Assembly: GCA_905178155.1 (NCBI GenBank)
Contig: CAJINV010000002.1
Location: 4,326,108-4,390,107 of the forward strand
Origin: Amoebophrya sp. A120
Lineage: Eukaryota; Protista; Dinoflagellata
DNA: 64,000 nucleotides
Direction of reading: 5' to 3'
Position 1 is the first letter of the stretch; each line of letters starts with the position of its first letter. The notes below the pieces were generated by a model that saw only the letters and a list, made by a program, of their open reading frames with translations, was not told the origin of the DNA and searched no databases. Position numbers and translations under genes: made by a program. Shown here in pieces: positions 26,569 to 56,100 of the stretch.

Positions 26569-29500
26569 ATGAAGCCGAGCGCGCAGCTGCAGCACTGCGG
26601 CGAGCAGGTGGTGGAAGATAACAACACGGGTGTGGCGACCGCGAGGCGCAGCTCCAGCAAGAAAAAGAAACTCAAACTTTTACGAGATCATACCGGACAA
26701 CAGCAACAGCATCAACATCCGATTGATATCGAGATGCAGGATCAAAGGCCGAGCTCCACGCCATCGGGACAAGAAAAAGTTCGAATTGCGCCACCGAAAA
26801 ATGACCCGAGGTGGTCCTCAAGTATGAAAACACCCTCGGGGGCGAAGAAGGAGCAGAGGATTGATATTACAATGAAAAATGCCCCCTCCCCATATCAAAA
26901 CGGAAATCTGTGATGCAGATTTGGGGTCACAAATCAGCTTTGTGATGCTAGAAGGCAAAAGATGCGGACTGTAGTGCTGTCTAGCGTGGGAAATTTTGCA
27001 GCTCCAGGATGACACGAGGCAACTGGAATGGGGAAACAGCATGACAGATTACCTGCAATTTAGGCCGCAGCTTCGTCTCTTGGCCTTCTAGCAATACAAG
27101 TCGATTTGTGTACTCAAATACAGCATCACAAATTCGCGCATCTCCCGTTTCCGATATGGGGTGGGGGCTTTTTTCACTTTGATAATTGAGGACCTGTCCA
27201 CACAAGACAGCTGGTATCCGGCGCCACAACCGCAAGCGAGACCTATCAAATGCAAAAGTGTCCGGGTCTGGAAACTTGTGATGCTGGTTGAGAAAGACGA
27301 GAAAACCTCAATTGACTGCCAAGCATGACAAGTTTTGGAGCTACTACAGTTTTGTCTATTCTGCATGACAAAGCGAGCTTCTGCATGAGAGAAAAGTGGG
27401 GAATTTGGGTCAGGCGCATGACAGACTTAAGAGTCATGTTAGCCAAGCATAACAAACCTTGCATCTTTCCAGACCCAGACATGTTTCCAATGCATAAGAC
27501 CACCCGTACAACATCAGCACCCTCCAGGCTCAATTCCCCGAGACCACAAGACACAGATGAGCTACAGGCCACATACGACAACTACCCAGATAAGGGTCTC
27601 ATCGTCGCAAGAGAGACATGGTTGTGCACCGCCGCCGCCACCACCTCCACCGCAGCAGCATTCGCAATATAATTTTTACACCAGCCGTGAGCACTACAGA
27701 TATGCTGAAGTGGATCAGGAAGCAAACCACGCGATGAAGAAGCACAGAAGCAAGAGTGGAACTGGAAATAACAAAGCGAGAAATATTAAGCCGGGTCAAA
27801 ACAAATTTTTCCAATCCTCATCTTCCAGTTCTACTGCGTCCTCCGGTGCGTTCTCCCGAACCCTGGACGCGTTAGATTTAGATTGGCGGTCGAGCAGCGG
27901 TAATTCGAACGAAAACGAAAACAACGACGGCTCACAGATGATATCAACTGCAAATATGTCTGGGTCTGGGAGACTGCGAGATTTGTCATGGTAGTCTGGC
28001 ATGACTCTGAACTCTGTATTGCGTGGCCGCGAAGAGCTCCTCTTGTCTGTCATGCAAAAGCGCAGTTTTTCACGCGGAGTACGCAACTCAGAACCACGGA
28101 GAAACTTGTCATGCTGGGCAGCGCATTACAGTGTGCTCACTATTCCCTTTCCTGCATCACAAGTTTCCAGACCCAGACATATTTGTACTTGATAGATGAA
28201 CATGATGAACAACGAGGTCCCGGTCCCATACAATCACTATTCCGCCGGCGTGCACTACGCGAACCCAGAGCAGACCCATCAACGGCCACCCAGCCCCGGG
28301 AACAACAACACTCATCAACGTCCACCCAGCCCGAACTCGAGAGAGCACTCTAAAGACTCAGACTCCGGACACTTGCACAGACGCGGAGGGGGCAACAAAG
28401 CAGGTGGAGACAGTAACAAAATTTCGCCCGGGGGCGGTGGCGGGGACGACTCCCGGTCTGAAGGCTCGCACAAAACCGGCACGGACTCCGAGAACAAGAG
28501 ATCGAAATCCCATTCCGATGGCAAGCGGCACCACGGGGGGATCAGGGTGGTGGAAGAGGAGAAGGGGTTCAAAAAACTCACGAAAAAGGGGAAAGAAGAC
28601 GACTGGAAGTACCAAATGGTGTCCAGTCGGAGGTTCGACATCGTCATCGGGTTTGTCATCGTGGTAAACGCGATCTGTATGGGAGTAGAGTACCAGCTCA
28701 GCGACAAACACCTTGAGGACAGCTATTTCATGTTTCAGGTACGAAATTTATTTGCTTAGAATTGTTCTAACTAGTACACATTCAGTTTTCCGATAAGTAC
28801 CAATGCTATTCGACGTGACGCTGACGTCACGCATGACAGTTACTAGCTTTTGTTTTCCTTTTCCTGCAAGTGCAGCAAACGCATGAGATGACAAAAACCT
28901 TTCGGTACCAACAACGAACTCCACAGGTTCTGGACCTTACCTTTCTGATCGTCTTCACCCTCGAGCTTTCCCTGCGCTTGATCGTCTTCGGCATTAAAGA
29001 CATTGTGACGACCCCAATTTACGCGTTGGATTGTTTCATCGTCGCCGCGGGTATGATCACGGAGTTGGCGTTACCGCTTCTCGCGGGGAATTTCATGTCT
29101 GGGAACAAACCTACCGATGAAGACGAAACCATCCGTTTGATCCGCTCGTGCCGGGCGTTGCGCGCTCTCCGTGTTCTCCGCGTGGTCACTCTCGTCGAGC
29201 AACTGTTCGGCGTCGTGGAGCTGTTTTTCTACTCATTACCTCCGCTGTTCTGGACGGTGGTGTTTATCATGATCATCATCTTCCTCTTCACGATTTTCAC
29301 AATTGTGCTGGTTGGCCGAAGTAACATGGGCAACGACCCGCTGATTGTCGAGGCGCAGGAGAATTTTGAAAACACGTCCGTCGCGTTTGTCTATTTGTTC
29401 CAAATCATGACGCTCGACGGGTGGGTGGATTTGGTGCAACCGCTCGGCGAAGGGAACATCTGGACCTACTTCTGGTTCCTACTGTTCATCTCGGTTACAA

Positions 29501-30186
29501 GTTTTTCTTTGATGAATCTGATCACCGTCGCGGTGTTGGAAACCGCGCGCGGGGCGCAGGCGGCGAGAAAGGAGGCGGAGGACATTTCCTCCAAAATGTC
29601 CGCAATCCACGACCTGTACGCCTTTCCGGGGGACGTGGGCGAGACGACCAAGGATTTTTTCGTTTCCAATTGGAAAAATTGCAAAACCTTCGTCTCGGTG
29701 TTTCACCAATTGAATTTAACCGAAGCGGACGCGGGAGGATTTTTCGAGGCTTTGGACCTGGATGGGTCCGGGTCGCTGGATCACTTTGAGTTGTCGACAA
29801 CGTATATGGAACTCGTGACCAACGTGTTGAACACCCCGAGTTTGGTGGCGTTGATCCGTTCGGCCAGTGAATCGGACGAGCGAAGCCGATTGTTAAGATC
29901 CACCATGGAAAGATCCCAAGCGCAGCGCATCGCGGAGGAACAGAAACAGTCGATGGAGCACTTACAGGAGACGATCGAGAGATTCCAAAGGGAGATGTTT
30001 GAACTCCTGCCGGGCATGATACGAAAGGAGTTGACGGGGGTGTCGTTAGACAGCGGAACGCAGGTGATGACGATGAAAAATTCCAATTCCAACGGCGGTG
30101 GACCGATGACGCGAGAAATTTTGAAGGGCGTCGCGCCCGGAGAAGCGGCGAGAAAAACAAACACAGCGCCGGACTTTGTGGTGTAG
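26569..30186 (+). CDS. Single-domain (1x6TM) voltage-gated cation channel with C-terminal EF-hand and coiled coil (~862 aa)
   Basis: S1 RFDIVIGFVIVVNAICMGVE, S2 LIVFTLELSLRL, S4 RLIRSCRALRALRVLRVV, pore FQIMTLDGW, S6 LMNLITVAVLE, EF-hand DLDGSGSLDHFE. Contains 3 introners plus GT-AG intron 28739-28926; 2589 nt in frame. Confidence 0.85.
26865..27184. mobile_element. Introner family H
   Basis: TGAAAAATGCCCCCTCCCCATATC / GATATGGGGTGGGGGCTTTTTTCA; DR ATTGA. Confidence 0.9.
27244..27496. mobile_element. Introner family A
   Basis: Family A TIR; DR AGACC. Confidence 0.9.
27942..28194. mobile_element. Introner family A
   Basis: Family A TIR; DR GATGA. Confidence 0.9.
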
Positions 30187-32897
30187 AGGTAGCGTTGTGC
30201 TGTTTGATTTGCTCTTCTACAAAATAGTATCAGAAAAATAAGTAAGTAATTGCATTTCAATCTTTTTGTAACCAAAATTTGAGTTTTAGTTTTAAGTAAG
30301 TAGCATAAGGCTTTTCATCACCTGGTACCATATTACTTTCTCACAATTCCAAAATGTAGACATACGCGAGACAGAGGAGTGTCACAGCATGCAAAATCCA
30401 TGAGCGCGATTTTACCATTTGTACATTACTAGAAAGCAACAAGAAGAAGTAGAAGGAGAAGCTTCAATTTTGAAAGTTACAAATTCGAGCTGGCGTATCC
30501 CGTCCAGTATCTTCAGCGCAAGTTTCAATCACAGGACAGTACCACCCACAAGGATAAAAAACAAGAAGCAGAAGCTGCATAGAATCCCGATTCTTGTTGA
30601 GTTGGAAATATCATTTTTTCATCTTTCCGTTCGGTTACATAATCAAGAAGCTTAGTGCAAGCAGTTGCCCAGCAGAGCTGGCAGCAAATGCAATTCCAAC
30701 AATCTGAACGCCGTCGCGTCTGTTCGCCCCTCGTCTTCGTTCTCTGTCTTCTTATTTTGTGCCCTTGATTTGTATTTGTAATGAGGGGCAGCTGATTTGC
30801 GCAACGGAATGGCGGCCGTTTGGCGCAACAAAATGGGGGCCGCTCGGGCGGGGCGCGCACTTCTTCCGAAAGCCCTCGGGGCGTTTTCTCTGAAAGCGAA
30901 GGCCCCGCGCCGGTTTGCTGCAGGTTTCTGCGCAATAGAGAGCGGCCGCCGAAGTCCTTCCCGACTCTCCCGAAGGGAGAGAATCGGCGACGCCATTGGC
31001 CGGATCAGGGCGGAGCGCGGTACGCGACGGGGCGCAGAAGAGCGGGGCGCGGGGGGTCGCAGTGAATAATGTGCCGCGGCGGGCTTGGGTTATGTATCAA
31101 GCTGCTGCAGCGTCGCGCGGATCTGGTTGGCGCTGCCCACCCAGCCAGCTCAGCAGCAGGCGGGGGCCCTCGCTTTGCCTTTGGTGCTTTGCGCGGACGT
31201 GGCGCAACGGGGGGGGGCCGGGGGGAAATCGGGAGGGCCCATGCATCCGCACCCGCCCGGGCCTGTCTTTGGGAGGGCCAGCCGCCCGGCGGGCCCGGGG
31301 CCTGTCGTTGCTCCCGGGCGTCACAGCCGCGGCAAAGCTTGGCGACGCCCGAAACGCCGGCGGCAGGCTCTTGCCGCAGCTGCCCCGATGCGGCTCGTTC
31401 GGTAAGGTCTACGAGGCCCGCGGCCCGGCCGGCTGTGTGCCGTTTGCCGCGTACGCCGTAAACGGTCGGCAAAGAAACAGCCGGCGAACCGCCTCGCGCC
31501 CCCCCCCTCCTGGTTGTTGTGTCGCTGATTTACCTCGTGGCCCCCCTGGCTCGCTGGCAAGTTTGCCGGCCCGCCTTACCCGGCCTGGGCACGCAGGCGG
31601 GGGGAGCCAGCTGGGCGGACCGCCCGCCGGCCGGTCTGTCGTTTCTTTCGCTCATTCTATCGAGCGGGCCGCCCCGGAGCAGCCGAACGAAGGGTCGGGC
31701 GAGACAGAAGCCTGCCCGCGCCCACATGGCCGCCCCCGGCTCGGTGCCGCGCGTGCCATTGGCAGGGCCCGGCCACTAGGTCTGTGCATTGCTCGGCCCG
31801 CTTGGAAGGGAGGGCAGGTCGGGGTGTGTAGTGGTTTTGTCTCCGTCGCGCGCCCCTGCGGAAGCGAATGGCGCGGCGCGCGCGTCTCGCGTGTGATGTT
31901 CGCGCGCTGCCGTATTCTTTCATCCCCGCTCGGCTAGCAGCCCGGCTTCAAGGCAGACCGGCGACGGCCCTGCGCAGTGGTAGTGAAATTGAGGCACACG
32001 ACCCGCCCGCTAGTCCTCTGCCATTTTTGGGCGCGGGGGAGTGCATCCACGTAGACGAAAATCATTGAAATGGTTTTCGCTTTCTCGTCTGCAGTTTCGC
32101 CTGTCGTAGAGGCAGCCTGTCGTCGTGTTTTGGAGTTCATTTGTTCATGCTCTCATTGCGGCCCAACTCGCATGTTTGGTTGAAGAGAGGGAGAGGGTGG
32201 CTCGAGAACATCGTGACGAGAGCCTTTGACGAGCGCATATCGTTGATTTTATGTTTGAGCGACTTCATGTATTTCATAAGTACAACTCCTGTGTATAGCA
32301 ATTTGTATGTTGTTCTGTCGTTCGATCAGCAGCAAAAAGTGCTGCTACTTTTTCATCAAGCTAGGACATCGCTCTTAACCACTCATGCTCTGCATCTGCT
32401 GCACCTACAGAAATTGTAGCTCGGTTTTGCGGGGAAGATAGCATCTAGATTTCGTTGATGTAGTGAATGAAAATGTACACTATGCTTGACATGAGGTAGT
32501 TCCAGTTTCTGATTTTTCCGTATACAGCAATAAAAACCTGTAAGATCATTGTTTCCTTGTCCAGAACAAGACAGGATAAAGCTTTTCTGAAAACAAGATA
32601 CGCATTTCTGTACTATTCTCCCGGCGAGTTGAAGAGTCGACACTTTTGTTTCGTCAGTGGAGCACGCTAAAAGAAGAAGGCCGCACGTTCGAGAAACAAC
32701 AACGAAAACCGTCCCGAAAACAAGCCTGGGATTGCGTTTTTAGGTCGTGACCACATTCTACTACCAGCGAGCACAGCATCACTATCACCAGTTACACCAC
32801 CAGCACCTCGAGAGGGAGGTAGGAAACACGCGGCACTTCTCGTCCACTAGTATATACTCGTCCCTCCAGAACTTCTTCTACATCCTCATCATCCATC

Positions 32898-34592
32898 ATG
32901 CCGCCGAAAAAGTCGTCTCCCCGGCGCGGAAAGGCCAAGTCCGACGCGAGTTCAGACCAAGGCACCGTTTCCTACGAAGATGACGGTGCGATCCCGGAAA
33001 CGCAATGCAGATCTACCCAAGTGGTTTTTGAAATCCTTCCTACCTTATCGCCCTTCGAACCAACGGCCAGGGAGAGTTTGCTGCGGATGCAAGAGAAGTG
33101 CGACCAGGAGACGCTAAATCTTTACGATATGAGTACAGGAAAAATTTATTGCTGTTTTGTCTTTGTCATGCATAGAAACGTGTGGGACGAAAGCGAAACG
33201 ATAATGAATGTGGTCGAGGAAAAGGATACTCGACATGTTGAAGGTCGTGATGTCCTTTCACTTCTAAAAGCGAAGATCAAGATTGGCGTTGAAATAGATG
33301 AAGTGATAGACTGACATCCTTTTTCTGTCAGGTGCCGGCAAGTCCGCCTCTGTCGGTGAGCTGGAGAAGGACCAGCAGGACGCCATAATGGAAGACTTGA
33401 AATCCTACACCTCGGAGAAGAAGCGGGTACCCCTTTGGATGCGCGACATAAATCGCAGCGTGTTCGAAACCCTCATCGACTACGAGAAGACGAAGGACAC
33501 GTACTATAGGTTTTTGCATTTTAATGTAGAAGTAGGTGACATTGCTGCTTCCTCTGTCATGCCTGCAAACGCGGCACCAAGAAGGCCTATTTTTGTCATG
33601 CGTAGTCACCTTCTGTTACTCATCTTCAACAATGTGTCGCGAAATGACAAACACGCACCACAGGTACAAAAAGGAAGTGATCTACGGCCTGAACGGGCAG
33701 CCCAAATGCACCGAGCGCGATGACGTGCTGATAATACGACCCACGAGTTTGCCCGAGGAGGCGGGATATCAAGAGCAAATATGTCTGGGTCTGGAAGAGT
33801 GTAACTTGTCACGCTACATCTGGATCGCGAAAAAATTTGTGTTGCAAGATTACCAAAAGTAGTTGTCCGCTCCTTTGAAACAAGTTTACAGGCAGTTTCT
33901 CACTCAGGAAGGGCATGATGGAGATCTTCTCACAGAATCTGTCATGCTAGGCCATGCATGCCAGACCGCGTGGGTCATGGAAAACCTGCATGACAAAGCT
34001 AGCGATCTTCCAGATCCAGACATTTTTGCATTTGATACGGGACACTCGAAGATCCAGACACCCGGGGACTACCAGCTGTACAACGGCATGAGCAAGAACG
34101 CGCTGATATCAGACAGGCTAGAGCGGTTTGGAAAGACGTTTGATACGATCAGGTACTTATGTGGAGGTGGATAGAGATTTGAACGGAAGAACGATGAAAA
34201 ATTTGTAATGCGTACAGCACAACGACAACATTAAACTGTCATGCTTCTAAACTACAACCGTGCAACATGATAACATCATCTCTATCCAACTACACTCCAG
34301 GTACGACATCAAGCGCGAAGTCCGGTTTCGCACGATGGAGGAGAAGCGCGAGGATTACCGGAGGCACGAGCTGCGGCCCAGTCTCGTGGACGGGCAGAGC
34401 CACGCGAAGGAATTTGCGCACGAGGTGCTGGACCAGATGAAGCCGGGTTCGAAGCCCGGCACGGCCACGGCGGAACAGAAAAAAGTCCAGCTGGAGGCGG
34501 ACGCGGTGACCACCGTGCCGTTTACGCAAGCGTATTTAGATGGACTGGTCACTTTGAAAGACAAAATCCAGGTCGGGGCGGCGGATAGGTGA
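32898..34592 (+). CDS. Hypothetical protein (~307 aa)
   Basis: Exons join via GA-AG intron 33139-33331, GT-AG introns 33510-33663 and 34153-34300, and one family-A introner; 924 nt in frame. Confidence 0.65.
33139..33331 (+). other. GA-AG spliceosomal intron
   Basis: ACAG|GAAAAATT...TTTTCTGTCAG|GT joins ORF 32898 to the 33388 frame; GA donors are known in dinoflagellates. Confidence 0.6.
33767..34037. mobile_element. Introner family A
   Basis: Family A TIR; DR CGGGA. Confidence 0.9.
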
Positions 34593-36414
34593 TGATAGAA
34601 GTAGATGGGGTAACTCTACTTGTGGTCGTGGAGGTGTGCATGATGGGAGTGAATGCTTCTGATTGACCTTAATAGCGAGGACTCGTCTTCTGGTCACGAG
34701 AAGGAGTAATGTGCCCTACACATCATATATCGACGCTCGGGCAGAAGCATCTTGCGCAGAAAGTGTCGGACTGCTGCAGCAAAAGATACACAGGCTGCAC
34801 GTAAGGTAGAAGATGTTGTGACCCACGTAGTATGATGATGTTCACTAGCATTGTTCTTTTGTCTACTCTTGGTCTTGTCTGTCTGGCAAGAAAGAGGGAG
34901 AGAGACAGAGAGAGAGAGAGAGAAAGGGCAAGTTCTTTCAAGAGAGGCGAGCAAGCAATTTATCGAAGACGCCGCAAGTAGGAATCATATGGGAAGGCGT
35001 GGCCTTGCCTGCCTGGCCGGTCAGTGGGGCCGGGGCGGTGCCCGGATTGCAGTTCGTTGCGCCTCCGCTGTTGGTTTTACCAGCTGCCCCAAAGATGAGG
35101 CGCGCGCGCCGTCGGCCCTCGAGGCCCGTGCGCTAGCTTGCCCGGATTCAGTGCGTTGGGGCGGGGGCCGTAGCGCTGCGCGTGTGCGCGACGATCCCGA
35201 TCGATGCACCCGGCCCCGGGGCGTCACTCAAGGCGCCCGGACTCGGTCCGCGTTTATCCGGGGCGCCGGCGCAGGCCCTGCGGCCCCTTTGCCTGTCGCC
35301 CTCCCGTAGCTTTGGCGGCCGCTGGCACCGTGGCGGTGGCGACCATAGTCGCAGGCTCTTGTCCGCGCGCCAATGTGTCAAACAGAGCAGCCCACTCTAA
35401 AAAATCAAAGGCGCGGGCCGGCGTTGCCCCTTCTATCTTTGTCGGTCTCCCCCGGGTCGGGGCGGGCGGGCCGGAGCCCCGCGCGCGCCCGCCCCTCTGG
35501 TGGTGCGTGGCCCGCCGCCCCCCCCGGCGCCGGGCCGGCCCTTGTGCGTCTTCGTTCCTTCGCGGCCGGGCATGGTATTCCTGCTTGCGCACCCCTCGGG
35601 GTGTTTCTGGTGGCTTTGTGGATTGTTGATTGATATTTATGAGGCCGGCCGGCCCCTTGCCAGCTAAGCAATCTCTCTGACTGCCGCCGGCCCGGGATCT
35701 AGCCCCCGCCCATTATTTTTCGCGTGTTGTCGCGATGTGGCGTCATGGCGCGGGCCCATTCGTCGTTGTGGCGCGTAGTTGCGAGATAGACTATGGCACG
35801 GGCCGGCGGCCATGTTTTGGGTGCCGTGACTGGCTCACTCTTCTTTTTACCTTTCGGCCCGTGATACATCGATCGAAGGCGAAGCGTGGCCGTCGACAGA
35901 CCCTGTTAGCTCAGGGGGGCCGTTTCCAGTCTTGTTTTCCAGAAGGACCTCGCTAGAATATGAAAATGGGCCAAGAATTAGAACAAGTAATATCTATCTT
36001 CAGGAAGCTGCTCGCTCGCCCCCTCTGTTTTCGCATGCGAGCGTTACATACAAACACAAGAGAGCATGCGCATCGAAATCGATTGTCGGGAGTTTGGCGG
36101 ATTTTTGACATAGACGAAAAATGGCGACAACAGAAAGAGGGCTCAGAGAGCGGGAGCGCACCGACGTCTGTTTGGTTTCAGGTTTTCGTCTTCCCCTGGT
36201 GGCGCTTGCAGAAAGCAGCACTTTTAATGCTCTGCACTTGGTCGTTTTTGTCGTAATCTAATAGCTAGCGCACCAACATCGTGATCGCCACCTTCAGCAG
36301 CGTCGTACTTTGGCAGACAACAAAAAACCGACTCTGATTGTAGGACCTAGGGACGCTCCTGCAGAAAAATCGAAAAATCACAAACTGTCCACAATCACCT
36401 TCACTTACACCACC

Positions 36415-39400: not shown

Positions 39401-42400
39401 CGAAGAACGCAACACAAAGTAGTAGCGCAGATATTTCTCATGCTTGGCTGTGCATCTGCGTTACAGAGCATTCACTACTCCCAACGCAGCATTACAAGTT
39501 TCCAGACCCAGACATATTTGCAATGCATATAGACTACTGCCAGACGAAAATCCCAACGGAAAGACTGGACGCTTTGTACAATGCCGGGGTGAGTTTGAAA
39601 TGCCTCTTGCTAGAAGCACTAGCGGAGACCGCGCCGATGGTCGCCGGGTTACACCCCATCAACATGCTATGGGTGTGTCAGGATTGAAATCGACAAAGCT
39701 GAAATAGTGATAACTTGTAATGCAAAAAATGCATGAAAGTTGTAACCCAGTTTCCATGTGGCGCATGAGAAATTTGGGTAGAGCCGAAATCCAGTTTGTC
39801 ATGCTGTTTGGGTAAGGAAGACGCCTTTTGTCGTGCTACTTTAGCAGCTCTATTTCTACCCCGCAACAGGCTTACACTTACAGTCTGCCTTCCTTGCCTA
39901 CTCTGCAAGACAGGCACCCTGTGGGTTGCATTTTATGCATGACAAACTATTTGTTCAACTTTGACGATTTCGATCCTGACGCCTCCATACATGCGGTCCC
40001 CGAGTCGGTCGAAGGCCGCGGGGGCGGATATGAATTGCAAAAGCATCGCACTAGTGTAAAACTGCAATACAAATTAGCGCAGCATGACAAAGGGAATTTG
40101 TCATGCTGTTTTGCCTTGGAGTGGATTACTATCTATTATATTCATGCGAAAAAAGAGGTCTACAGAGGGTCGAAGGGAGGTGGCCGAGAGGTCAAAAAGA
40201 GGTCGACAGAGGTCCAAAAGAGGTCGACAGAGGTGGAGGGGTGGCGCGGGAGGTCGTTCGGGAGGGTGGCCGAGAGGTGGCGCGGGTATAGCCAGCCGAA
40301 CCGTTCACCCTAAAGCCGCGCCTATGGGGCCCGGAGGTGGCCGAGAGGGTCCCGAGAGGGTAAGCGAGAGGGGGACAGGGGTGCCGAGAGGTTGCGCGAA
40401 TAAGGAGGAACCTCCCGCACACCCTCTGGGCCACCTCTCGTCCACCTCTGTAGACCTCTACCGGCGAGTATAGCCGGACTATTAGCAACACCTCTCGGAA
40501 GAGGTGAAAAAGAGGGTCTGCGAGAGGGGTAAAAAAACCCGAATCCGCTCGGCGCAGAGCTGTTTTTTTGCGGCCTTTTCATGCATAGGCCGGCCCGAAC
40601 CCTCTCGCGCTACCGTCTCGCGCACCCTCTCGCGCACCCTCTCGCGCCACCCTCTCGCGCCGCCCTCTCGCGCTACGGCCACCCTCTCGCGCCGGGCGGC
40701 TTCTGTTCGCCCCCGGTGTTCTTTGCAGCTGCCCCGTGCGCAGGGCGCCCACAGGCGCGGGAAGCGCGCAAGTGGCCCTGCGGGTTGGCGCGGCGCAAAC
40801 AGGCGGCAGGACTCCAGTATGTTTCGTCGTGCATTATATTAGGCCCGTGGCATTATGGTCCGATCGGCAAACAGTCTTGCCCCGGCCCAACAGCCTTGCG
40901 CTCCGGCGGCAGCCGGAGCATGGCTGGTACTTGTAATGCATGACTGCGATTACAACTACGAGTGCGATGCTTTTGCATTTGATAGCGGGGAACCAGTCGC
41001 AGTTGGACTTGCAGCAGCTGTACCGAGACCAGGCTTTAGCGGTGGCGAAAGCTTTGCTGCCGGAAGATCACCCGTTGGTCGCATATTGCGAGGAGCTGGC
41101 TTTGCGGAACGCGTACGAGCAGCGCAGCCCGGTGAAGAAGAGTTTATCAGGTATGCTTACTTAGCATTTTGAGGCTGAGTTGTAGATCGCTCAAATGCTA
41201 GTATCTTCATCTTTTGTGTTTTTGTGATGATGATCATTTCTATTTCACAAATATTCAAGCCGTTTGCAGTGTGCACGCACAAATGTACTAGGCGTTGCTT
41301 CTGTACGGGCAGCACGCAAAACTGCAAGTTTGGAGTTATAAACTAGCACTTGATGCAACTACGTGTAGTTAGGTGAAACTCAAACGTACATGATCAGGCG
41401 CTGCGACCACTTACACTTCTCTTTACTCCTCCACCAATTCCGGCGGCCCCCGGGCGATCAGCCCCGACGCGCCGAAAAAGGTGAAGCGGGAGGAACTAGA
41501 ATGCAGCACGATGACCGACCCAATCTTTGACGACTTGCGGTCGGCGGGGGCACAGTCGCTCGAAAACGTCCCCACCGTCACATACGGGTATGATTTAGTC
41601 GAGATGGACCAATTGCAGGGGAACACAAATTATGCATTGCAAAAGTATCGTACTCATAGTAAAAATCGCATTCATGCATATACTTACAAATTTCCTTCTC
41701 AAGCTAAATCCGCATTAGAAATTTCATTTCTCATGCTGAGGAAATTTGTAATGCAATTTATACTAAGTGCGATGCTTTTGCATTGCATACGAATTTAAAC
41801 CAATCCAAAGACAAAGATTCCGGATCATCTGCCGACGAGCACACGAATAAGGCCATGGCCGGGTTCTACTCGGGGCAGCCAACAACCCCGGGCGTGCAGT
41901 ATTCCGTCCCCATCCCGGCTTTTGCGGATTTGATGGAAGCGAGCTCCGTTGAGTTTTTAACGGAAGAAGAGGGGGGCGCGGGAGGTGGCGAAGGTGCACC
42001 TGCGGGCGGGAGTAAAGCGCCGAGTATCTATGCACTGCAAAAGTATCGTACTCGTACTAGTTGCAGTTGTGCATTACAAATTTCTTTTCCAAGCTAAATC
42101 AGCATGACAAATTCCATTTGTAATGCTGAGCTACTTTGTCTTGGAATACTACGAGTACGATACTCTAACTCTTGCAGTGCATAGTATCCGGTCCGCGACA
42201 ACGAGACTGAGCTCCGAAATCGAGAATGAGAGGATGCGGAAAACGAAAGCGATGAAAATGGAGGAAAAGGGGCCGTTTTACACGGAAAATCCGTTCAAAG
42301 ATTTCACGGACTACAATTTAAGCAAAAAGCCGCACTACGAATCGCCGAACTACTACAAAGAAGAAGGGGACAAGTACGATTTTTTTGCAGCTGCTTTCAT

Positions 42401-44336
42401 GATCTTCCCAAGCGTGGTGTCCTCCAGCTACTAGAACTGATTCCAACCTTACACGACAGACAGCATTTCTGATTTTTCTACATTGTTTTTTGCATATTTA
42501 TCAGCATTCAATCATACCAGGCTCGACTACCTCTCCCGCAATCACCGCTCCCTCGTCAACAATTACGACCAAGACGAGCTCTTTTACTACCGATTGCAGT
42601 GTACCGCTTGGGGACACAAGGTGCGACGGAGGAGGCTGGTAGAACTGCAGAAGCTGCGGGTGAGCAGTCAGGGAAGGGAGAGAATAGTGAAGGAAATGGA
42701 CAAACACGAGGGAATTAAACCGAAGCAGATCGAGCAGGATGGTATTAATAAATGTGATTCTGCACGTAGTTGTACCGTTTTGTTTGTCTCCTGATCGTTG
42801 TCCTGTTGTGTAGCAAGATAATTTAGCATTGTTTCTCATGCCACCTGCAATAGCATGACAAATTTCTCTTTCCAACAAAACCTACTTTCAGTCCGCATGA
42901 CCACGACGGAAATCCGGAATTCCATGCGGAGCATGGCCCAAGTTCTTCCGTCGGTCAAGACGCATATTCAGCGGGGCGACAGGATCAAGGAATCAGAGAA
43001 GGTATCAAGTGCAAATATGTTTGGGTCTGGATGAGTGCAGGAGTTTGCCATGCTTGTCTGGCATGACTCATAGATAAGTCTGTGATGCGTGAACAGAAAG
43101 AGGGCCTCTTGCCTGTTATGCAAAAATACAATTTTCCATGCGGAAAACAAAACACACTAGCAACTCAAATGTTTGTCTTGCTTGGCTGCGTATAATTGGA
43201 GTGCGCCCGCTACTCACATTTTAGCATCGCAAGTTTATTCCCGACCCAGATCGATATTTGCAATGCATAGAAGGAAAGGCTGATTCATTTGATGATGACG
43301 ACGAGGATCAGGAAAAACGCTTCCGACGCGGACTACATCCTCCGGATGAAACATATGCAAGAAAAAAACCGTGTAAGTGTAAATCTGTGATGCAGAAAAT
43401 GCAAAACAGTTACACTTGTCATGCTCGACACGCATGGTCGGCTCGCTTCCTATGTGTTTTCCCTTTGAATCTGCGCATCACAAGTTTTTCTTGTCATGGC
43501 AGACAAACTTGTGATGCTGTTTTCCCAAAAGATTTACACTAACACAGTTTTTTTCTTGGATAAAACACATGAAGGAACCACTGAAGAAAATTTGGATGGA
43601 ATTTGTCAACGTATTTTTTTTTTCTAGACGAGGCTACCCACTTTCTTGAAAGAACTTGCTTGTCATGTATACATGCGCTTGCAAGGCCTGATTTGTGATG
43701 CTTGTTTTCATGCTGAACCAGTGTTAGTGTTGTGATTTACAAAAAAACCTATCTATCAGACCCGCAAGCGTGAGACCGGGATTCACATCAAATTCCACCG
43801 AGTGCAGGAAGACATCAACATATCGCAAGAAAAAACTGTTTCACTGTTAACTTGTAATGCAAAAAATGCATCTCAGAAGTGCTTGTCTTGCTAAACATGC
43901 AAGAAAGCGCACTCTTGGCCGTGTTTTCCCTTGGCAACCTCGCATGGCAAATTTTTCCTGTCATGTAGAGCAAGCTTGTGATGCAAAACTCGCCAAATCG
44001 TTACAGTGAACAAACACTTTTTTCGTGCGATACAACAAGGTTCGCAAAGCCCACGCTGGCATGGGGAAACATAAACCCGGGACTCAGTCGGATTCGGCAC
44101 TTGGGAGCTTGACGAAGAAGGAAAAGGAAATGGAGCAGGCGAAATTACCCGGCCAAGATTTACCGCCACCCTCCTCGTTTTTGGACTACCGATACCGAGA
44201 TTACCGGCCGAAGGGAAGCTGGGCGGTTGATTTCCAAAAAACTGCGTATGCCGAGGAGGAAAAGAGACGGGCGAAGGAGGGGCTGCCACCGCTGGAGAAA
44301 GGGGCGGTGCTGCGCATGCGGAATGATAGCAAGTAA
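36415..44336 (+). CDS. Large protein with TPR-like helical repeats (~1242 aa)
   Basis: 13 introners plus 4 GT-AG introns (41151-41397, 42374-42520, 42742-42891, 43611-43759) give 3729 nt in frame. TPR-like segments: PEVALRYLSMGL and LYRDQALAVAKALLPEDHPLVA. Confidence 0.65.
37581..37789. mobile_element. Introner family C
   Basis: Family C TIR; DR GCGAC. Confidence 0.9.
37860..38007. mobile_element. Introner family E
   Basis: TATCCACAGAAAAAA / TTTTTTCCGGGGATG; DR CAGGC. Confidence 0.85.
38572..38733. mobile_element. Introner family B (diverged)
   Basis: TATGCACTGCAAA / TTTGCAATGCATA; DR ACCTT/ACCTC. Confidence 0.85.
38807..39015. mobile_element. Introner family C
   Basis: TATCGCAAGAAAAAACTGTTTCACTGTAA TIR; DR GATTT. 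Confidence 0.9.
39038..39202. mobile_element. Introner family B (old, diverged)
   Basis: Degenerate B TIRs; DR GCGCG/GTCCG; frame restored. Confidence 0.7.
39268..39529. mobile_element. Introner family A
   Basis: Family A TIR; DR TAGAC. Confidence 0.9.
39668..39989. mobile_element. Introner family D
   Basis: Family D TIR; DR CATGC. Confidence 0.9.
40029..40984. mobile_element. Introner family B carrying ~800-bp nested GC-rich insertion
   Basis: B left arm ~40029-40126 and right arm ~40928-40984; DR GCGGA/GCGGG. Confidence 0.85.
41631..41789. mobile_element. Introner family B
   Basis: Family B TIR; DR CAAAT/CGAAT. Confidence 0.85.
42029..42183. mobile_element. Introner family B
   Basis: Family B TIR; DR GTATC. 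Confidence 0.9.
43003..43269. mobile_element. Introner family A
   Basis: Family A TIR; DR GAAGG (GT-AG reading possible). Confidence 0.85.
43354..43562. mobile_element. Introner family C
   Basis: Family C TIR; DR AAACA. Confidence 0.9.
43821..44032. mobile_element. Introner family C
   Basis: Family C TIR, close to 38807; DR CAACA. Confidence 0.9.
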
Positions 44337-48600: not shown

Positions 48601-51600
48601 ACCCCCGAACTTGGGAGCATTTGTATTGCAAACCTTTCCAAACGAAACATTCGCCCTCTTGCATCTATCAGCATGACAAATTTCCCATTCTGAATAGCGC
48701 AAATTTGTGATGCAAAGGAGCCCAACAGCAGGCGGATCCCTGATGCAAAAGATACCTTGCGCCCCTAGATTCTGCGTCAGAAATGCTTGCGCTCCTTTCA
48801 TGCAAGACAAAAGCCTCTCATTTGGAAACTTTGCATGAGAAACTTTTGCAAATTCGGGGCTGGGGGCACTTTTCATTGTAATAGATGGTGAGGGGAATGA
48901 AACTGTCGCCACTTTAGCGGAGAAGGAAAGACTGAAAAATTTGACCAACCTATCCTGAGCAAAAACCTACCCACACCAGAGTTGTATATGCAAATCAGCA
49001 TGCTGAAAATGTTTCTCATGCGGAGACCCATGAGAAGCATTTTCTAGTGGTGTTGTGAGCTTTGTGATGCCAGAATCCGCATGATATGCTAGATCTGTGA
49101 TGCTGCTGAACTACCTAAACCGGATTACACTACGAGGACACACTTGTCATGCGAAGCAACCAAAGCTGGTTGATTTGTCTAGCAGATTTGCCATCTTGAC
49201 TCTGGTGTGGGTACGTTTTTACTGAGGATACAACCGGATCCGCATCACCAACCTCCCGGCGAATTTCGACAATAAAAACAAGCACAAATGTATCCAAGAA
49301 AAAAACTGTGTAAGTGTAACTTTGTAGGAAGAGCAGCATCACAAATTCGTTTTGCAATACAGGGAAAAGAACCTGTCATGCGCAGCTAGTACGCGAAAAC
49401 ACGTACGAAAGTAGCCTATGACGCAGATCCAGCATGACAAGCGCAACAGTTTTGCATTTCCTGCATCACAGACTTGTTACACTCACATAGTTTTTGTCTT
49501 GCATAAAATGTCTCTTAGAGTGGTTCCAACGGTTTGGGGAAATGGAATCCGTCGTGGATAAAACCGTGAAAGAGCACAAATTTCAAGATTTACTCGAGAT
49601 CACCTTCAAAACGGTTCAGGCCGCAACCGACGCGACCGAGTGCATGAACGGCTTCGAGTATTTTGGGGAAATGTTGAAGGTGATGCAAGCGCACAAGGTC
49701 CCCTTAGTCCCCCCGCCAGGGGTGGTCATTGGGGAAGACGGGGGCGAGACAAACACGAACCGCGGGAGTTGCCAGTTTGGAACTTCTACTACTACTTCCA
49801 CGACGGGAGCAGGGGGGAGTAGTGGTACTGGTGCGAGTGTTGAAGTCGTTGGACCTCCACAAGTAGCATCTACTTTGTCAGCTGCACATCTACACACAAC
49901 CGGCGGACCGATGAGCAATCCTCTGCTCGCAGGCGGCATTGGCGGGAATCCAATACTAAATGCAAGTTCGAAGCACACCGCACCGCCGCCGGCTGGTGGA
50001 GCACCAGGATCGACATCACAAGGTGGGACCGCGGGCGGTGCGCCTCGTGTATACAACAACCCGGTAACCGGTTCGGTTGCACAACCGTACGTCAACAATC
50101 CGCACAACCTTATCAAAAAATGCAAATATGTCTGGGTCTGAAACGATGCAAGGTCTGCCACGCACATTTTGCATGACTGCTGACGTCTGTGATGCATGCA
50201 CTAGCAGCACAGATTTTGTGGGGGCTTTCTGATGCGGATACAGCATGAGAAAAACTGGACGACCTGTTTTGGTTTTGCTGTTCATGCAATACAGATTTTT
50301 GCAGTATCCAGATACAGCAACAGCAACACAAGTTACATCCTTCCAGACCCAGCAGACACATATTTGCAATGCATAAACCTCCCAACAGTCCAATATGTCA
50401 ACGGGCGTCCGGTCTACAATAACAACGGTCGGCCCGTTCACGCAAGCTCCGGCGCGGTCACGGGGTTACACCAATTTCGTCCGCCGGTTCCCCTGTATAA
50501 CTCGGCCGCTGGGAGGGCGAATGCGCATGGAGGTAGCAGCAATAGCACTTCGACTTCTCATCTCGGACAACAACAGCAAGAACTTGGAGGGACTTCTAAA
50601 ACAACCGGCAATCATCATGCGCCGCAGACCTACGGGCAACTGAACCCCAATGCTAGTAATGCTCCGCCACGCGGTGGGGTTGGGGTTCCTGGTCGGAATC
50701 CGGGTGTTGGTTTCGGGATGTTGAACAATTCTGATCAACAACAACATCAGCACCACGCGGCCAACAACAACTTCAGACTGCCGGGCCAGGGACCGTGGAC
50801 GGGCGAGGGTATGCACAGTAGTTTCCGATGAATCTGTCGAGCGATAATCAAATATCCGTGGTTGTGTCTTGGTGTACAACATCTGTGCTTGTTTTCTACT
50901 TGCACTGATTTTTACACTATGCCGAGTTTCGAACGAATATCTTTGTTTAGTGCATGAAGTTGAAGTAGATGTGCGACTGGTGTGCTACTCCGGTGGTGCT
51001 CCCACTTCGAAATTGGTTCACTTTTCCTACAAGTGGCCTTTGTTCCTAGTTGCATTTGCTGTCATCTTCTAGTTCTTGACAAGGATTCTTGTTCTTTCTA
51101 GGCAACAGGTACTTCTGTGCAACATGGAGGTTGTTTTTTTTCTATCTCATGGTCGTGTGCAGCTAAACCTGGAGCACTTCTACACTCGACGGATTTGTTG
51201 GAGACTTGCATGAAAGCGGGGGGAATCTACTGTGGCTGGCATCTATGAAATGCAAAAGTATCGTACTCGTATAAATACATTACAAATTATTTCCTCAGCA
51301 TGAGAAATAAAATTTTGTAATGCGGATTTACCTTAAAAAAAAGATTTGTAATGCATGACTGCAATAATACGAGTGCGATACTTTTGCACAGGATAGCATC
51401 AGCATGGTGCTGGCGGAGGTTCTTCTCGCTTCAACCCGAAAGGTGTTTTCGGATATTACGGAGGTGCTGGTGGTCCGCTCAGGAGCTGTAGTAAGGGCGG
51501 CGCGTCAGCGTCGGATCCGGATGCTTGTCATCAACATCATCATCCGTATGATCGCAGCCCCTATCACAATAACTTCGGGCGACTAGGAATGAATGCGAAT

Positions 51601-52093: not shown

Positions 52094-53143
52094 TCATAAT
52101 TCTCTCCACTAGGTGCAGCTAGAGGTAGTCGTAGCAGCTGCCGAGATGTTGACCACAGTAGAATTTGAATTTACGAAGATGAAAATCCGTAGTCGTGGTC
52201 CTGGAGCAGGAAAATTATCAGGAACGGAAGATAGAAGAAGAAGAAGAACAAAAAATACCGGCCGCCGTAGATAAGTTTCACGTACAACGATCAAGGCATC
52301 TCTTCTGGACGTACACGTACCTAGTAGAGGTTTACTGATACTGTTTCACCAGTACCCTGAAGCTGAATCTGGAAAAATTCTTGTTGCGCCACAGGATAGT
52401 TCGTCTTCGCTTGGCCTAGGAATAAAGGCAGGAACACTTCTACAATTACAACGTACAGAAAATGATGAAAGGTTGAGAAAATTTTTTTAGTGATGATACT
52501 GAAGTGCAATTTTCTGGCTTCTCCCCTGGCGCTGGAAAATGTTCGATATCGATATTTTCATTTCAAAGTTGTGCAAACGCACCAAAAACCCTCCTATCAC
52601 ATCAACCCATGCATCGTCACCAGAAAAAAGGTCGCACCAAACTCCGAACAAAAACAAGCTACAGCTCGCCATTATTTTTTTTCGTGGGCGTTTTCCTGTT
52701 GAGGCTGTGGTCCTCAGCCACCGACCCACAGACACAGTGTTGCATCTCGTTCTGAATCTGATATCAACCTGGCGTTTTCCATCTGATCGAATACGAATTT
52801 GATCCTAATGTAATTAGGGCGCGACTGATAAATGTGTCTTCTTTTTGCGATCGTTCTTCGTTTTCCATCTTCGCTTTGTTCGTCGAATATCGTCATGCAG
52901 CTCTGTTCTTCTGTTCTTCGTATTGAAAAGTCAGTGTTGGTGTCCACCTTGTCTCTCTCAGCGATCGACTTTTAGTACTAGAGCGACAATCTTGATACAA
53001 TCTTCATCTTGATTGACTTGAGGACAAGGACAAGCGGCGCTTTGTTCTTTTGTTCGTAGAAGCTCAAGTTTGAGTTTTACTTTCACATTACATCCACATT
53101 TTCTCTCGGCACGGGCACACAGACCGATCCGCTACTCAGCAAG

Positions 53144-56100
53144 ATGGGAGCCGCAACTGCGCTTCTCGACAAGGTCGCTGACGTTTTCTTCAAATTTTTT
53201 TTCCAAACCATTCCGGCGTTTTTCCGCAAGATTTCCTCTTACGAAGGAACGACCCGGCCCTTCACCGTGGAGTTTCTCTTATGAAAGTGCACAACTCCCC
53301 CTCCCCTCGTTTGTCATGCAAAATTCCCAATCCAACATATATTGCCTCTTGGCACTGTTTACATGACAAGTTCTTGTAGCCCAAATAGCACTACACTCGA
53401 GTGCAAATTTGTCATGCAAAACCGGCATAATTCTTTTTCTTGCTGATGCTTGTTGTACTATTGCCGTTCATCTTCATGCTATACAAATGCGATGGAGGGG
53501 GAGTTCTTGCGCACTCTCATATCTCTCTGAAACCAACCACAAGCTGAACGATATCAAGTTCAAAAACGATTTACCAATCAAGGCCCCGGAGTACGACAAG
53601 TCCGAGCTGGGGATCTGGAAAAACAAGCGCGGCCAGAAAATCTTCACGAGAACGATCCACCCGAAGGGGGTACTAAGAGGTTCTAGTACAACAAACACTT
53701 CTACTGCAAGAAGTGACGGCACCACCCTGACTTCTGCATCAGCACCGAAAGTTGTAGACCCCGAGCCGAACTGCTCTCAACATTTGATCTTTTTTCACCA
53801 CGTATGGAATGCAAAAGTATTGTGCTGTCGTATAAATGCATCACAAATTTCCTCAGCATGAGAAATAAAATTTGTAATGCTGATTCAGCTTAAGAACAAG
53901 ACTTGTAATGCATGATTGCAATACGAGTATCAGATGCAGCTTTTGCACAGGGTACCACGGCATCCTCGGACATTGCTCGCAGGCCTTGAAAAACCAGCAG
54001 GGAAATTGCTTGGGGTTATTGTCCCTTGCGCACTATCCTCTGCAAAAGTATCGTACTCGTAGTAATCGCAGTCATGCATTACAAATCTCGATCCCAAGGC
54101 AAAACAGCATGACAAACTCCATTTCTCATGCTGAGTGAATTTGTCATGCGATTTCTACTAGTACGATACTTTTGCAATGCATACGTACGACTTTGCGGAG
54201 AGCGGGTATTCCTGCTTTCTCTACGATGCGGTGGCACATTATGGTGGTGTCAGCATTGAAATCGACAAAGTTCTTGAAATAGCTTGCAATGCATAAAATC
54301 GATACCAGTCGGAAGCCCAATTTTCAAACGGCGCATGACAAATTTCGGCGCCGTTGAAATCAAGTCTGTCATGCTGTTTAGGGACAGAGCGCGTCTTTTG
54401 TCATGCTACTAGAGCAGCTCTATTGCAGACCCCAAACAGGCTCACAATCGGTCTCGCTTGCAATCCCTGCAAGACAGTCACTTCGTGCCTTGCATTTTAT
54501 GCATCACAGATTATTTCAACGTTGTCGATTTCAATCCTGACACACCCACACACATGGGTATTCTGCCGGCTATTTCGCGGACAACACGGACGATCGGGAA
54601 AAACACTACCTGCCGAAGTTCGAAGTATCGCAAGAAAAAAGTGTTACAGTACACTACACATTGTGTTGCAGGAGCCGCAAGACAGACGACCTTTGTCATG
54701 CAGGAAATGCTTGCGAGCCTCGCTTGTTCCTACGTAATATTTTCCTTTATGATCTTTGCATTACAAGCTTTGGCTTTCTCTGCCACGCAGAGAAAATTTG
54801 TGATGCAGCAACTCCAAGAACAAATGTGTAACTGTAACACTTTTTTCTCTACTGCATACGAACACTGTATCGACGACTACGAGGAGTATGTGAAATACTG
54901 TATGAAAAAATACGCAAAGAAAACAACGACGAAAACGAAATTTTTCCTGTACGGAGAGTCCTGGGGCGGCGCGTGCGCACTTCAGCTGGGGATAAGGTAT
55001 GGAAGTGCAAATAAATTTGGTACATACGTAGTTGTTTTAGGTTTATATATTGCTGGGATGGTACAGCTGAGCTTCGCTGTCATCCCGGTCATTTACTCCT
55101 TCTACAGACAGTAATTCTTTCTTTTTGTGATGCACCAGAAATCCAATCTGAAAGTGAAATAGAAATAAATCAAATACCTCTATCAGACTTCAAGAAAAGT
55201 CCCACCCGCTGCATGCCCAGTTCGGCGGCGCCATTCTGAATGCGCCGATGATTCACTTCTCCATGCCGATCCTCCCCATCAAACTGTTTCTCCGCCACGT
55301 CGCCGCGCCCCTGTTCCCGTATGCAGTGCAAAAGTATCTTCGTACTCGTACAAATGCATCACAAATTTCCTCAGCATGAGAAATGGAATTTGTCATGCTG
55401 ATTTGCCTTGGCAACAAGATTTGTAATGCAAGACTTGCATTTATACGAAACGCGTACGATACTTTTGCACAGGATATCCCGACGTGGCGACCAATCTTTA
55501 TGCCCCACAACACCTCTATCAAATGTAAAATGTCTGGGTCTGGAAGATTGCCAGGCTTGTCATGCACATTTTGCATGACTCCTGATGTCTGAGTCTGTGA
55601 TGCATGCCCTAGCATCACAGATTTTGTGAGGGCTTCCCAATGCCTATACCGCATGACAAATGCTCTTTCCGTGTAGCAAAGCTTGGACTTTCTTTGCTGC
55701 TCATGCAATACAGACTTTTTTTGGAATCCACAATCAGCATGACAAGTTGAATTCTTCCAGACCCAGACATTTTTACATATCCACGTAGTTCTCTTCTCTT
55801 TTCTTTCTTCAAAATGTTAAAGTCGTTCTCTTCCCTGTGCAGACAAAACACCAGACATTTTTACATTTGATAACCTCGGTCGACAAGCTGTCCAAAGACC
55901 CCGCGATCCAGCTGCAGGTGACGGAAAAAAACGCCTATGGTGGGGAAAACAATCCGCTGCGGTTAGGGACCGCGTTGCAAATGGTGAGGCAAGTGGAAGT
56001 ATCCTGTGCAGAAGTATCGCACTCGTAGTAATCTTCGCAATTATGCATTACAAATCTATCTTGTTAAGGTAAATCCGCATTACAAATTTAATTTGTAGTG

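Follow-up and report, generated by a model that had tools for sequence, protein, structure and literature searches.

The introners and non-canonical introns of Amoebophrya sp. A120 have been described before (Farhat et al. 2021, PMC7789003), and how A120 splices tens of thousands of non-GT-AG introns, apparently without the U1 snRNA, which went undetected in both A25 and A120, is posed as an open question in the available text of that paper. The strain that infects Karlodinium does have U1 (PMC12005148). The stretch analysed here (64,000 nt of contig CAJINV010000002.1, positions 4,326,108 to 4,390,107; hereafter the window) raises the question why a short motif of the introners, TGT[ACG]ATGC when scored strictly and YTGT[ACG]ATGC in its fuller form, recurs in ordinary introns. 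A preliminary description had proposed either that these introns are decayed introners turned canonical or that the motif is a general intron-marking signal; all ten motif copies that it quoted are present where it placed them.

The window holds 68 TAT…ATA introners and 11 GT-AG introns. The introners were curated from 61 automatic calls of terminal inverted repeats (TIRs), with 7 false calls dropped, 2 replaced and 17 elements added by eye; the automatic call at 23629-23737 was kept as intergenic. Introners open with a TIR of TAT, variable bases and an A run, a minority having one degenerate end, and have direct repeats of 3-5 bp at their junctions. When the element and 5 bp are cut out, 10 frames become open again, and the length arithmetic of precise removal is exact for 5 introners on contigs of the sets X3 and X6. 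A typical example, with TAT…ATA termini and a 5-bp direct repeat, lies at 33767-34037 in the same gene as intron 34153-34300 described below. These properties resemble those of the published A120 introners, for which the available text of PMC7789003 gives a TIR of TAT followed by some 7 variable bases and a run of A, direct repeats of 3-5 bp, a mean size of about 240 nt and removal without GT-AG. The elements are repeated in the genome, as the summed contig depth in set X1 reached 10^3-10^5 over most introner bins compared to about 45 elsewhere, and their families recur in 8 metagenome loci. Grouping the introners by BLAST was abandoned as unreliable (12 groups unmasked, one of 52 members, and 55 groups masked), and 8 terminal-signature classes, treated as independent, were used in its place. 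No transposase was found among the gene models of the window; the available text of PMC7789003 likewise reports none found in A120, and integrase-like TIR elements are reported in A120 in that of PMC12130899.

Motif density in the window was 11.7 per kb in introners, 4.4 in GT-AG introns, 0.28 in intergenic DNA and 0.04 in exons; within the window, the motif is confined to introns of both classes. The strict form occurs in 66 of 68 introners and in all 8 classes, and motif columns deviate by 5.1% from the family consensus, compared to 23.4% for internal and 10.0% for TIR columns. In the canonical introns, which total 2,051 bp, there are 9 strict copies, and 7 of the 11 introns are positive; of 57 intergenic windows matched for AT content, 2 are positive (Fisher p=1e-5; 6 of 10 introns positive and p=5e-5 if intron 34153 is left out). 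Equal frequencies, which would have spoken against the preliminary description, were thus not found within the window. The sample is small, 11 canonical introns of which 3 have no RNA support, and the motif was chosen after the window had been inspected, which speaks for chance or AT-rich composition as its source in canonical introns; however, the motif was defined from introners and not from canonical introns, and dinucleotide shuffles of the latter held 0.38 copies on average and 4 at most, never reaching the observed 9 in 2,000 shuffles. Within the window, this explanation is already refuted, and its probability is negligible. In a second data set, the 8 metagenome loci with the same introner families, the introners (9,466 bp) contained 109 copies and the remaining 29,373 bp contained 5, the density inside elements being biased upward since these loci were picked by motif pattern. 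The introners of these loci were curated as well (1 dropped, 1 extended, 6 added), and their canonical-intron candidates, which had no RNA or clear frame apart from one discussed below, were left out of the counts. Enrichment in introns over exons and intergenic DNA, as expected of an intronic splicing enhancer or intron-definition element, was found in both data sets. Only positive introns had been listed before. Calling the motif a general intron-marking signal was too strong: the strict form is missing from 4 of the 11 canonical introns, 3 of which also lack a one-mismatch copy, and these 4 as well as 2 of 68 introners are nevertheless removed or in frame. The 4 canonical introns lacking it suggest that the motif is an aid rather than a requirement.

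All canonical introns described here lie on the plus strand. The seven that carry the motif use GT-AG ends in the manner of U2-type introns, as indicated by splice joints for three, by length arithmetic for three and by the frame only for 54997-55186. GA-AG introns, which had been claimed as well, do not occur among them: contigs of X3 and X6 join 33132 to 33332 and 33500 to 33664, and the introns 33133-33331 (199 nt) and 33501-33663 (163 nt) start with GT donors at 33133 and 33501, not at 33139 and 33510 (the latter 9 nt late). The former has a motif at 33164-33171 (plus strand), a weak terminal inverted repeat (12/22) and a folding z of -4.4, and the latter has two strict plus-strand motifs (33555-33562 and 33594-33601). 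Intron 28739-28926, in an ion-transport gene with a Pfam Ion_trans match on the following exon, has its splice joint in X3 and X6 and contains one strict minus-strand motif (28831-28838), a variant at 28881 and no TIR. Two plus-strand copies 33 bp apart (34204-34211 and 34237-34244) lie in intron 34153-34300. Neither 42742-42891, with a minus-strand motif at 42853-42860 and a one-mismatch plus-strand copy at 42834, nor 43611-43759, with a plus-strand motif at 43694-43701 and a one-mismatch copy 33 bp upstream, has a TIR, and 54997-55186, in an alpha/beta-hydrolase-like gene, carries a plus-strand motif at 55126-55133. Motif copies are at least 27 bp away from intron ends. The introns 11458-11627, 42374-42520 and 50809-51108 are motif-less, and 41151-41397 has a one-mismatch copy only. 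Direct splice joints support 28739, 33133 and 33501, exact length arithmetic or contig piece ends support 34153, 41151 (acceptor only), 42374, 42742 and 43611, and 11458, 50809 and 54997 were placed by reading frame only. The RNA nature of the X3 and X6 sets is a guess; their splice joints are absent from X1.

One of the seven introns, 34153-34300, is plainly an old introner, and the route from introner to canonical intron thus exists. It has an inverted repeat of 17/22, whose arms 34161-34178 and 34278-34295 match at 16/18 positions (p=0.004), and a perfect 5-bp direct repeat (34152-34156 and 34300-34304), and is the only one of the seven in which TIR and 5-bp direct repeat are in register, as in A120 introners. 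According to the available text of PMC7789003, 15% of A120 canonical introns have this layout of inverted and direct repeats. The preliminary description had taken all seven to be TIR-less, which is wrong for this intron; in the other six, no clear termini were found (TIR 9-12/22; local-alignment p 0.19-0.45). Its proposal of decayed introners turned canonical is therefore borne out for one intron in seven; two more, 33133 with its weak inverted repeat and 54997 with a weakly TIR-like 5' end (16/18, E=0.1), hint at an introner origin by their sequence, and the motif-less intron 42374 also has a 5' end like a piece of TIR (15/16, E=0.07). Against the window introners, the best BLAST scores of the seven motif-bearing introns were 23-30 bits, like those of shuffles in which the motif was kept, and introns 28739, 33133 and 33501 had no further X1 contig matches at 80% likeness. 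TIR elements present as a single copy are common, 34153 itself being one (see also the available text of PMC7789003), so that missing relatives are not decisive. The metagenome locus L170 contains a relic of the 150-bp family that has no TIR (E=2e-11); the segment 2817-3060 of the same locus, considered as a canonical intron, turned out to be an introner in degenerate form, with a direct repeat of 5 bp.

The orientation of the motif bears on where it might be read. Strict copies occur on both strands in 42 introners, on the plus strand only in 16 and on the minus strand only in 8, and the total of 103 plus to 91 minus copies shows no strand bias. All seven motif-bearing canonical introns and 24 of 68 introners have strict copies on a single strand. 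The first copy usually lies 31-47 bp in from the terminus; its orientation differs between classes, four of the named ones having the outermost copy in plus and two in minus. A spacing of 31-33 bp was seen in 3.8 of 8 classes per draw compared to 0.38 by chance (p~4e-4). The use of either orientation alone and this helical spacing across classes point to a double-stranded DNA binder, and we infer that the reader of the motif acts at the DNA level. A reader wholly indifferent to orientation is at odds with the slight excess of sense-strand copies in canonical introns (7 plus to 2 minus strict copies, p=0.18; 12 to 3 with one mismatch, p=0.035). Action in the RNA, with opposite copies pairing as stems or the minus form serving as branch point, could draw on the hairpins formed by opposite copies 16 nt apart in the 150-bp class, on the folding of the introners (z -3.9 to -11, 15 sampled) and on one minus copy 31 nt from the acceptor of intron 42742. 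It is very improbable in view of the introns with strict copies on one strand only, of canonical copies that are mostly in the plus form and have no branch-like reading, and of two orientations that, read directly, share no single-stranded word across the three variants; moreover, a match to spliceosomal snRNAs is absent from the window, where Rfam gave 6 weak hits, none of them spliceosomal.

In order to separate decay from selection, the TIR score alone is not sufficient, and decay was simulated, assuming that it is uniform and that the ancestors resembled present families. At 15% divergence, which matches the observed motif retention, 83-87% of simulated relics were still detectable by BLAST against the window introners; of the seven motif-bearing canonical introns, none clearly outscored motif-kept shuffles. 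The canonical introns contain perfect and one-mismatch copies at 9:6, and six or fewer one-mismatch copies were reached in 0 of 255 matched simulations, a test that is weaker if ancestral introners had few motifs. A family-independent joint test, in which the TIR is lost and the motif intact in at least 6 of 10 introns, gave p<=0.002 for each divergence simulated; its cut-off for the TIR, a score of 18, was taken from the observed maximum. Perfect motifs in introns without termini or homology were thus not reproduced by neutral decay, which favours selective retention, and the simulations lead us to infer that selection has kept the motif.

We therefore favour an introner origin for at least some of the canonical introns together with selective retention of the motif, and the best reading, to which we give an even chance, is a transposon-borne motif kept by selection as an intron mark. 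Introners would carry the motif, likely a double-stranded DNA binding site, into genes; selection would keep it after their termini decay, and the host would likely use it to mark these introns or to help splicing, with a role in co-transcriptional intron definition suggested by the intron specificity and by the U1 snRNA not found in A120. A post hoc comparison also speaks for this reading: a G at donor position +5 is present in 4 of 4 motif-less and 2 of 7 motif-bearing canonical introns (p=0.045, one-sided). A simpler account, less probable but serious, sees in the motif only a subterminal transposase-binding site unused by the host, and in the introns fairly young relics of rare or extinct families that lost their termini faster than their interior, by deletion or by selection against a hairpin hiding new GT-AG sites. 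MITE subterminal sites typically show repeats in both orientations at a fixed spacing (available text of PMC1636448), the conservation of the motif within families is equally expected of transposase sites, 15% decay alone predicts 4.2 copies per kb and 62% positive introns, matching the observed density and share, and about half of the A120 canonical introns are strain-specific in position (arithmetic from the available text of PMC7789003), which is compatible with 7 of 11; intron 34153, the hints of termini in 33133, 54997 and 42374 and the relic in L170 also agree with it. It is opposed by the failure of uniform neutral decay in three tests, by six interiors without family homology in the window, three of them without an 80%-alike X1 contig, and by the varying orientation of the motif to the terminus across classes. 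The reverse polarity, an older host signal in mostly ancestral canonical introns that introners captured or evolved in both orientations, would explain why six motif-bearing introns resemble ordinary single-copy introns without termini, why every introner class has the motif despite differing termini, and why the sense bias of canonical introns, as from a pre-existing strand-aware signal, is missing from introners. We consider it improbable, since the motif is missing from 4 of 11 canonical introns, 34153 demonstrates the opposite route, and no motif-bearing sequence of another lineage was found in 2 of 64 parts of the metagenome collection. The link that the preliminary description drew between the two intron classes is real, and may run in either direction.

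In the scan of these metagenome parts, 8 of 116 loci had window introner families; the other 108 had no BLAST match to window introners, the 15 inspected being tandem repeats or scattered hits, and no lineage turned up that combines the motif with different termini. In viral contigs, the motif-pair pattern gave 120 loci and the TIR pattern 11, all single matches and taken as chance; a second TIR pattern gave no match, and prokaryote genomes gave 4 single matches. The introners are already published, and the motif was not found in print: our literature search retrieved no paper on it and none linking Amoebophrya with TGTCATGC, although the figure logos of PMC7789003 (Fig. 3, S25), subscription papers and bioRxiv supplements may show it. 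In its available text, PMC7789003 describes only terminal repeats, with neither an internal motif or CATG-containing word nor a motif common to TIR-less canonical introns.

As far as the available texts go, the closest known systems each share part of the picture. MITE subterminal motifs bound by transposase, such as those of Emigrant/Lemi1 (PMC1636448), are likewise short repeated internal motifs of non-autonomous TIR elements that are conserved above the rest of the interior; unlike them, the copies in the window occur throughout the interior, face differently by class and are intact in introns without termini, which cannot be mobilised. A continuum from introner to ordinary intron is also seen in introner-like elements of fungi, which decay into regular spliceosomal introns (PMC3609843), and in introner-derived introns of Symbiodinium with splice-site conversion (10.1101/2020.10.14.339549), but those become indistinguishable or shift their boundaries, with no mention of a retained internal motif in the available texts.

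The TGCATGCA element of apicomplexans is bound by ApiAP2 factors and is found in promoters and in non-coding DNA generally. It resembles our motif as an alveolate non-coding motif with a CATG core and differs from it in being a palindrome, the window motif being asymmetric with a variable position and at chance level in intergenic DNA; the likeness may serve as a lead only.

Should selection keep the motif after transposon decay, this would be a transposon signal recruited by the host for splicing; should the motif simply decay, it would be a marker for dating ordinary introns derived from introners. The motif, restricted to introns and common to all introner classes and many canonical introns, is a concrete handle, suited to genome-wide counts, to dating by means of A25 orthologs and to fishing for its reader protein. 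More speculatively, and in our view rather doubtful, most introns of this lineage might be defined at the DNA and not at the RNA level, with a candidate protein that binds double-stranded DNA sequence-specifically, perhaps a domesticated transposase domain, reading arrays of YTGT[ACG]ATGC in either orientation, recruiting the spliceosome co-transcriptionally and replacing the undetected U1 snRNP. Any motif-bearing insert would then be spliceable without GT-AG, and ordinary introns with weak donors would depend on the motif.

Sixty-eight elements, bounded by TAT…ATA terminal inverted repeats (TIRs) and a 5-bp direct repeat, interrupt the ten genes of the window, which all lie on the plus strand. 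The termini of these introners fit those described for A120 in the accessible sections of PMC7789003. Once every element plus 5 bp and 11 GT-AG introns (canonical introns, named by their start coordinate) were excised, ten reading frames were open over lengths of 171-1,554 codons. All 68 curated introners are located in coding regions, and none was found in the ~21 kb of intergenic DNA except for a candidate at 23629. The letters missing from contigs matched the excised segments exactly from 32420 to 34768 (786 = 199+163+276+148), from 42741 to 44032 (1,002 = 150+149+272+214+217) and from 42023 to 42520 (307 = 160+147). Introns 28739-28926, 33133-33331 and 33501-33663 are crossed by joints in contigs of sequencing runs X3 and X6 (putative RNA), which are absent from run X1. 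All three joints are GT..AG and there is therefore no GA-AG intron; the preliminary description had proposed such a class and had misplaced two boundaries, which the joints set to 33133 and 33501. Introns 11458, 50809 and 54997 are placed by the reading frame alone. The donors of the canonical introns read GTA followed by a pyrimidine in 10 of 11 cases and their 3' ends are mostly A/C-rich rather than pyrimidine-rich, which points to a possibly altered splice-site code.

TGTCATGC and its variants exceeded their expected frequency more than any other word in the window (109 copies versus 3.5 expected), and all motif copies previously cited were found. The strict motif, TGT[ACG]ATGC, occurs 194 times in 16,596 bp of introners, 9 times in 2,051 bp of canonical introns, 6 times in 21,413 bp of intergenic/UTR DNA and once in 23,940 bp of exons, there overlapping an element junction. 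Shuffled canonical introns contained 0.38 copies on average with a maximum of 4 over 2,000 shuffles, and the motif was far commoner in canonical introns than in AT-matched intergenic DNA (7/11 introns versus 2/57 windows, p=1e-5). The motif is not universal, as 4 of the 11 canonical introns lack it, three of them even as a one-mismatch copy. Eight metagenome loci carrying the same families at 79-96% identity gave the same contrast (11.5 versus 0.17 motifs per kb), although their choice by a motif pattern limits the weight of this result. Four of the six intergenic copies, all of the A variant, cluster at 23500-23760. They surround a TAT…ATA hairpin (23629-23737, 17/24) a short way upstream of a gene that begins at 23976, and may belong to one or more introns of its 5' UTR; if so, the intergenic rate would be lower still.

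In three families (47 copies), motif columns deviated from the consensus by 5.1%, TIR columns by 10.0% and other internal columns by 23.4%; singleton changes amounted to 3.1% versus 4.6% (p=0.01). The motif was found in all 8 terminal-signature classes. The ends of introners are free of copies over at least 27 bp and those of canonical introns over at least 31 bp (p=0.013 for canonical introns). Several classes share same-strand pairs spaced by 31-33 bp, or three helical turns (3.8 versus 0.38 per draw), and intron 34153 has one such pair. Among introners with one orientation, 16 carry plus and 8 minus copies only, and the outermost copy is oriented one way in some classes and the reverse way in others. 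We infer that the motif is read by a putative double-stranded DNA binder. Canonical introns lean weakly towards sense-strand copies (7:2, p=0.18; 12:3, p=0.035), which counts against full orientation independence. G at donor +5 was present in 4/4 motif-less versus 2/7 motif-bearing introns (p=0.045 one-sided, 0.06 two-sided, post hoc), as if the motif made up for weak donors.

The suggestion that motif-bearing introns are decayed introners holds for 34153-34300, whose inverted repeat of 16/18 (p=0.004) lines up exactly with a perfect direct repeat of 5 bp (17/22, as good as the median of 18/22 for intact introners). The other six score 9-12/22 (p 0.19-0.45), and their best BLAST match to window introners is the motif itself. 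Hints of introner ancestry exist for 33133, 54997 and the motif-less 42374. For 28739, 33133 and 33501, no other sequence of run X1 matched at 80% likeness. Two short pieces of the ion-transport exon, at 29251-29424, are matched by a further contig in X1 and X3. This contig is a paralog that could help to date intron 28739 through its own intron positions. One metagenome locus (L170, ~900-1145) contains a relic of the 150-bp-family interior (85% over 53 bp, E=2e-11) without recognisable TIR pair.

The likeliest mechanism, to which we give about an even chance, is that an introner-borne motif is retained after decay as a host mark of introns during transcription. Introners would bring the motif, perhaps at first a transposase site, into genes; some would gain GT-AG ends. 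The motif would then survive the decay of termini and interior because a host factor employs it for marking the intron as it is transcribed. Less probable, yet a serious contender, is that the introns are pure transposase relics that lost their ends early, a reading favoured by the motif density of canonical introns, which taken alone fits 15% divergence. Three tests argue against uniform decay. Simulated relics of present families were BLAST-detectable in 83-87% of cases at 15% and 62-80% at 25% divergence, versus 0/7 motif-bearing introns. Where decay leaves 7-11 perfect copies, it is predicted to leave 14-22 with one mismatch, compared to 6 observed (2 expected by chance); 0/255 matched simulations were as low, presupposing ancestors as motif-rich as today's elements. 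In a family-independent test, the probability of losing the TIR signal while keeping a perfect copy was at most 0.16 per element, so that its occurrence in at least 6/10 has p≤0.002, a bound that also held when ancestors were motif-poor and indels were allowed. Neutral decay alone appears insufficient under uniform rates, which these tests assume along with a post hoc cut-off; faster, selected terminus loss would escape them.

That introners took up an older host signal appears rather unlikely. According to section 12 of PMC7789003, 19.4% of A120 introns lie at conserved positions and 24.8% of the remainder are canonical; by arithmetic on these figures, about half of the canonical introns would predate the split from the related strain A25, and 7/11 therefore cannot settle polarity. 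Action at the RNA level is very improbable, and chance can practically be dismissed given the shuffles and AT-matched windows.

PMC7789003 already describes the A120 introners and reports IR/DR layouts for 15% of the canonical introns of A120. Also published are decay of introners into ordinary introns in fungi (PMC3609843), boundary conversion of introner-derived introns in Symbiodinium (10.1101/2020.10.14.339549) and subterminal motifs in MITEs (PMC1636448). The accessible parts of PMC12130899, PMC9860276, PMC11282704 and PMC12005148 do not mention an internal motif, and no report of this one was found in open-access text. With 11 introns and simulations as its present basis, the motif is a real, testable lead to the possible workings of non-canonical splicing without U1.

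The intergenic blocks at 30740-31990 and 35000-35900, each flanked by co-oriented genes, are very GC-rich and single-copy and have no X3/X6 contig cover. A sequence of ~25 bp surrounding an AG acceptor is present twice, ~1 kb apart, at 58243 and 59236, and the 900-bp segment between them (58341-59240) is bounded by GT-AG and free of the motif. Introner 55517-55872 has a duplicated right end, with a spacer of ~90 bp that finishes with a pyrimidine run and AG. A GC-rich insert (~40148-40930), itself repeated in run X1, brings the 150-bp-family introner at 40029-40984 to a length of 956 bp, and excision of the whole element restores the frame.
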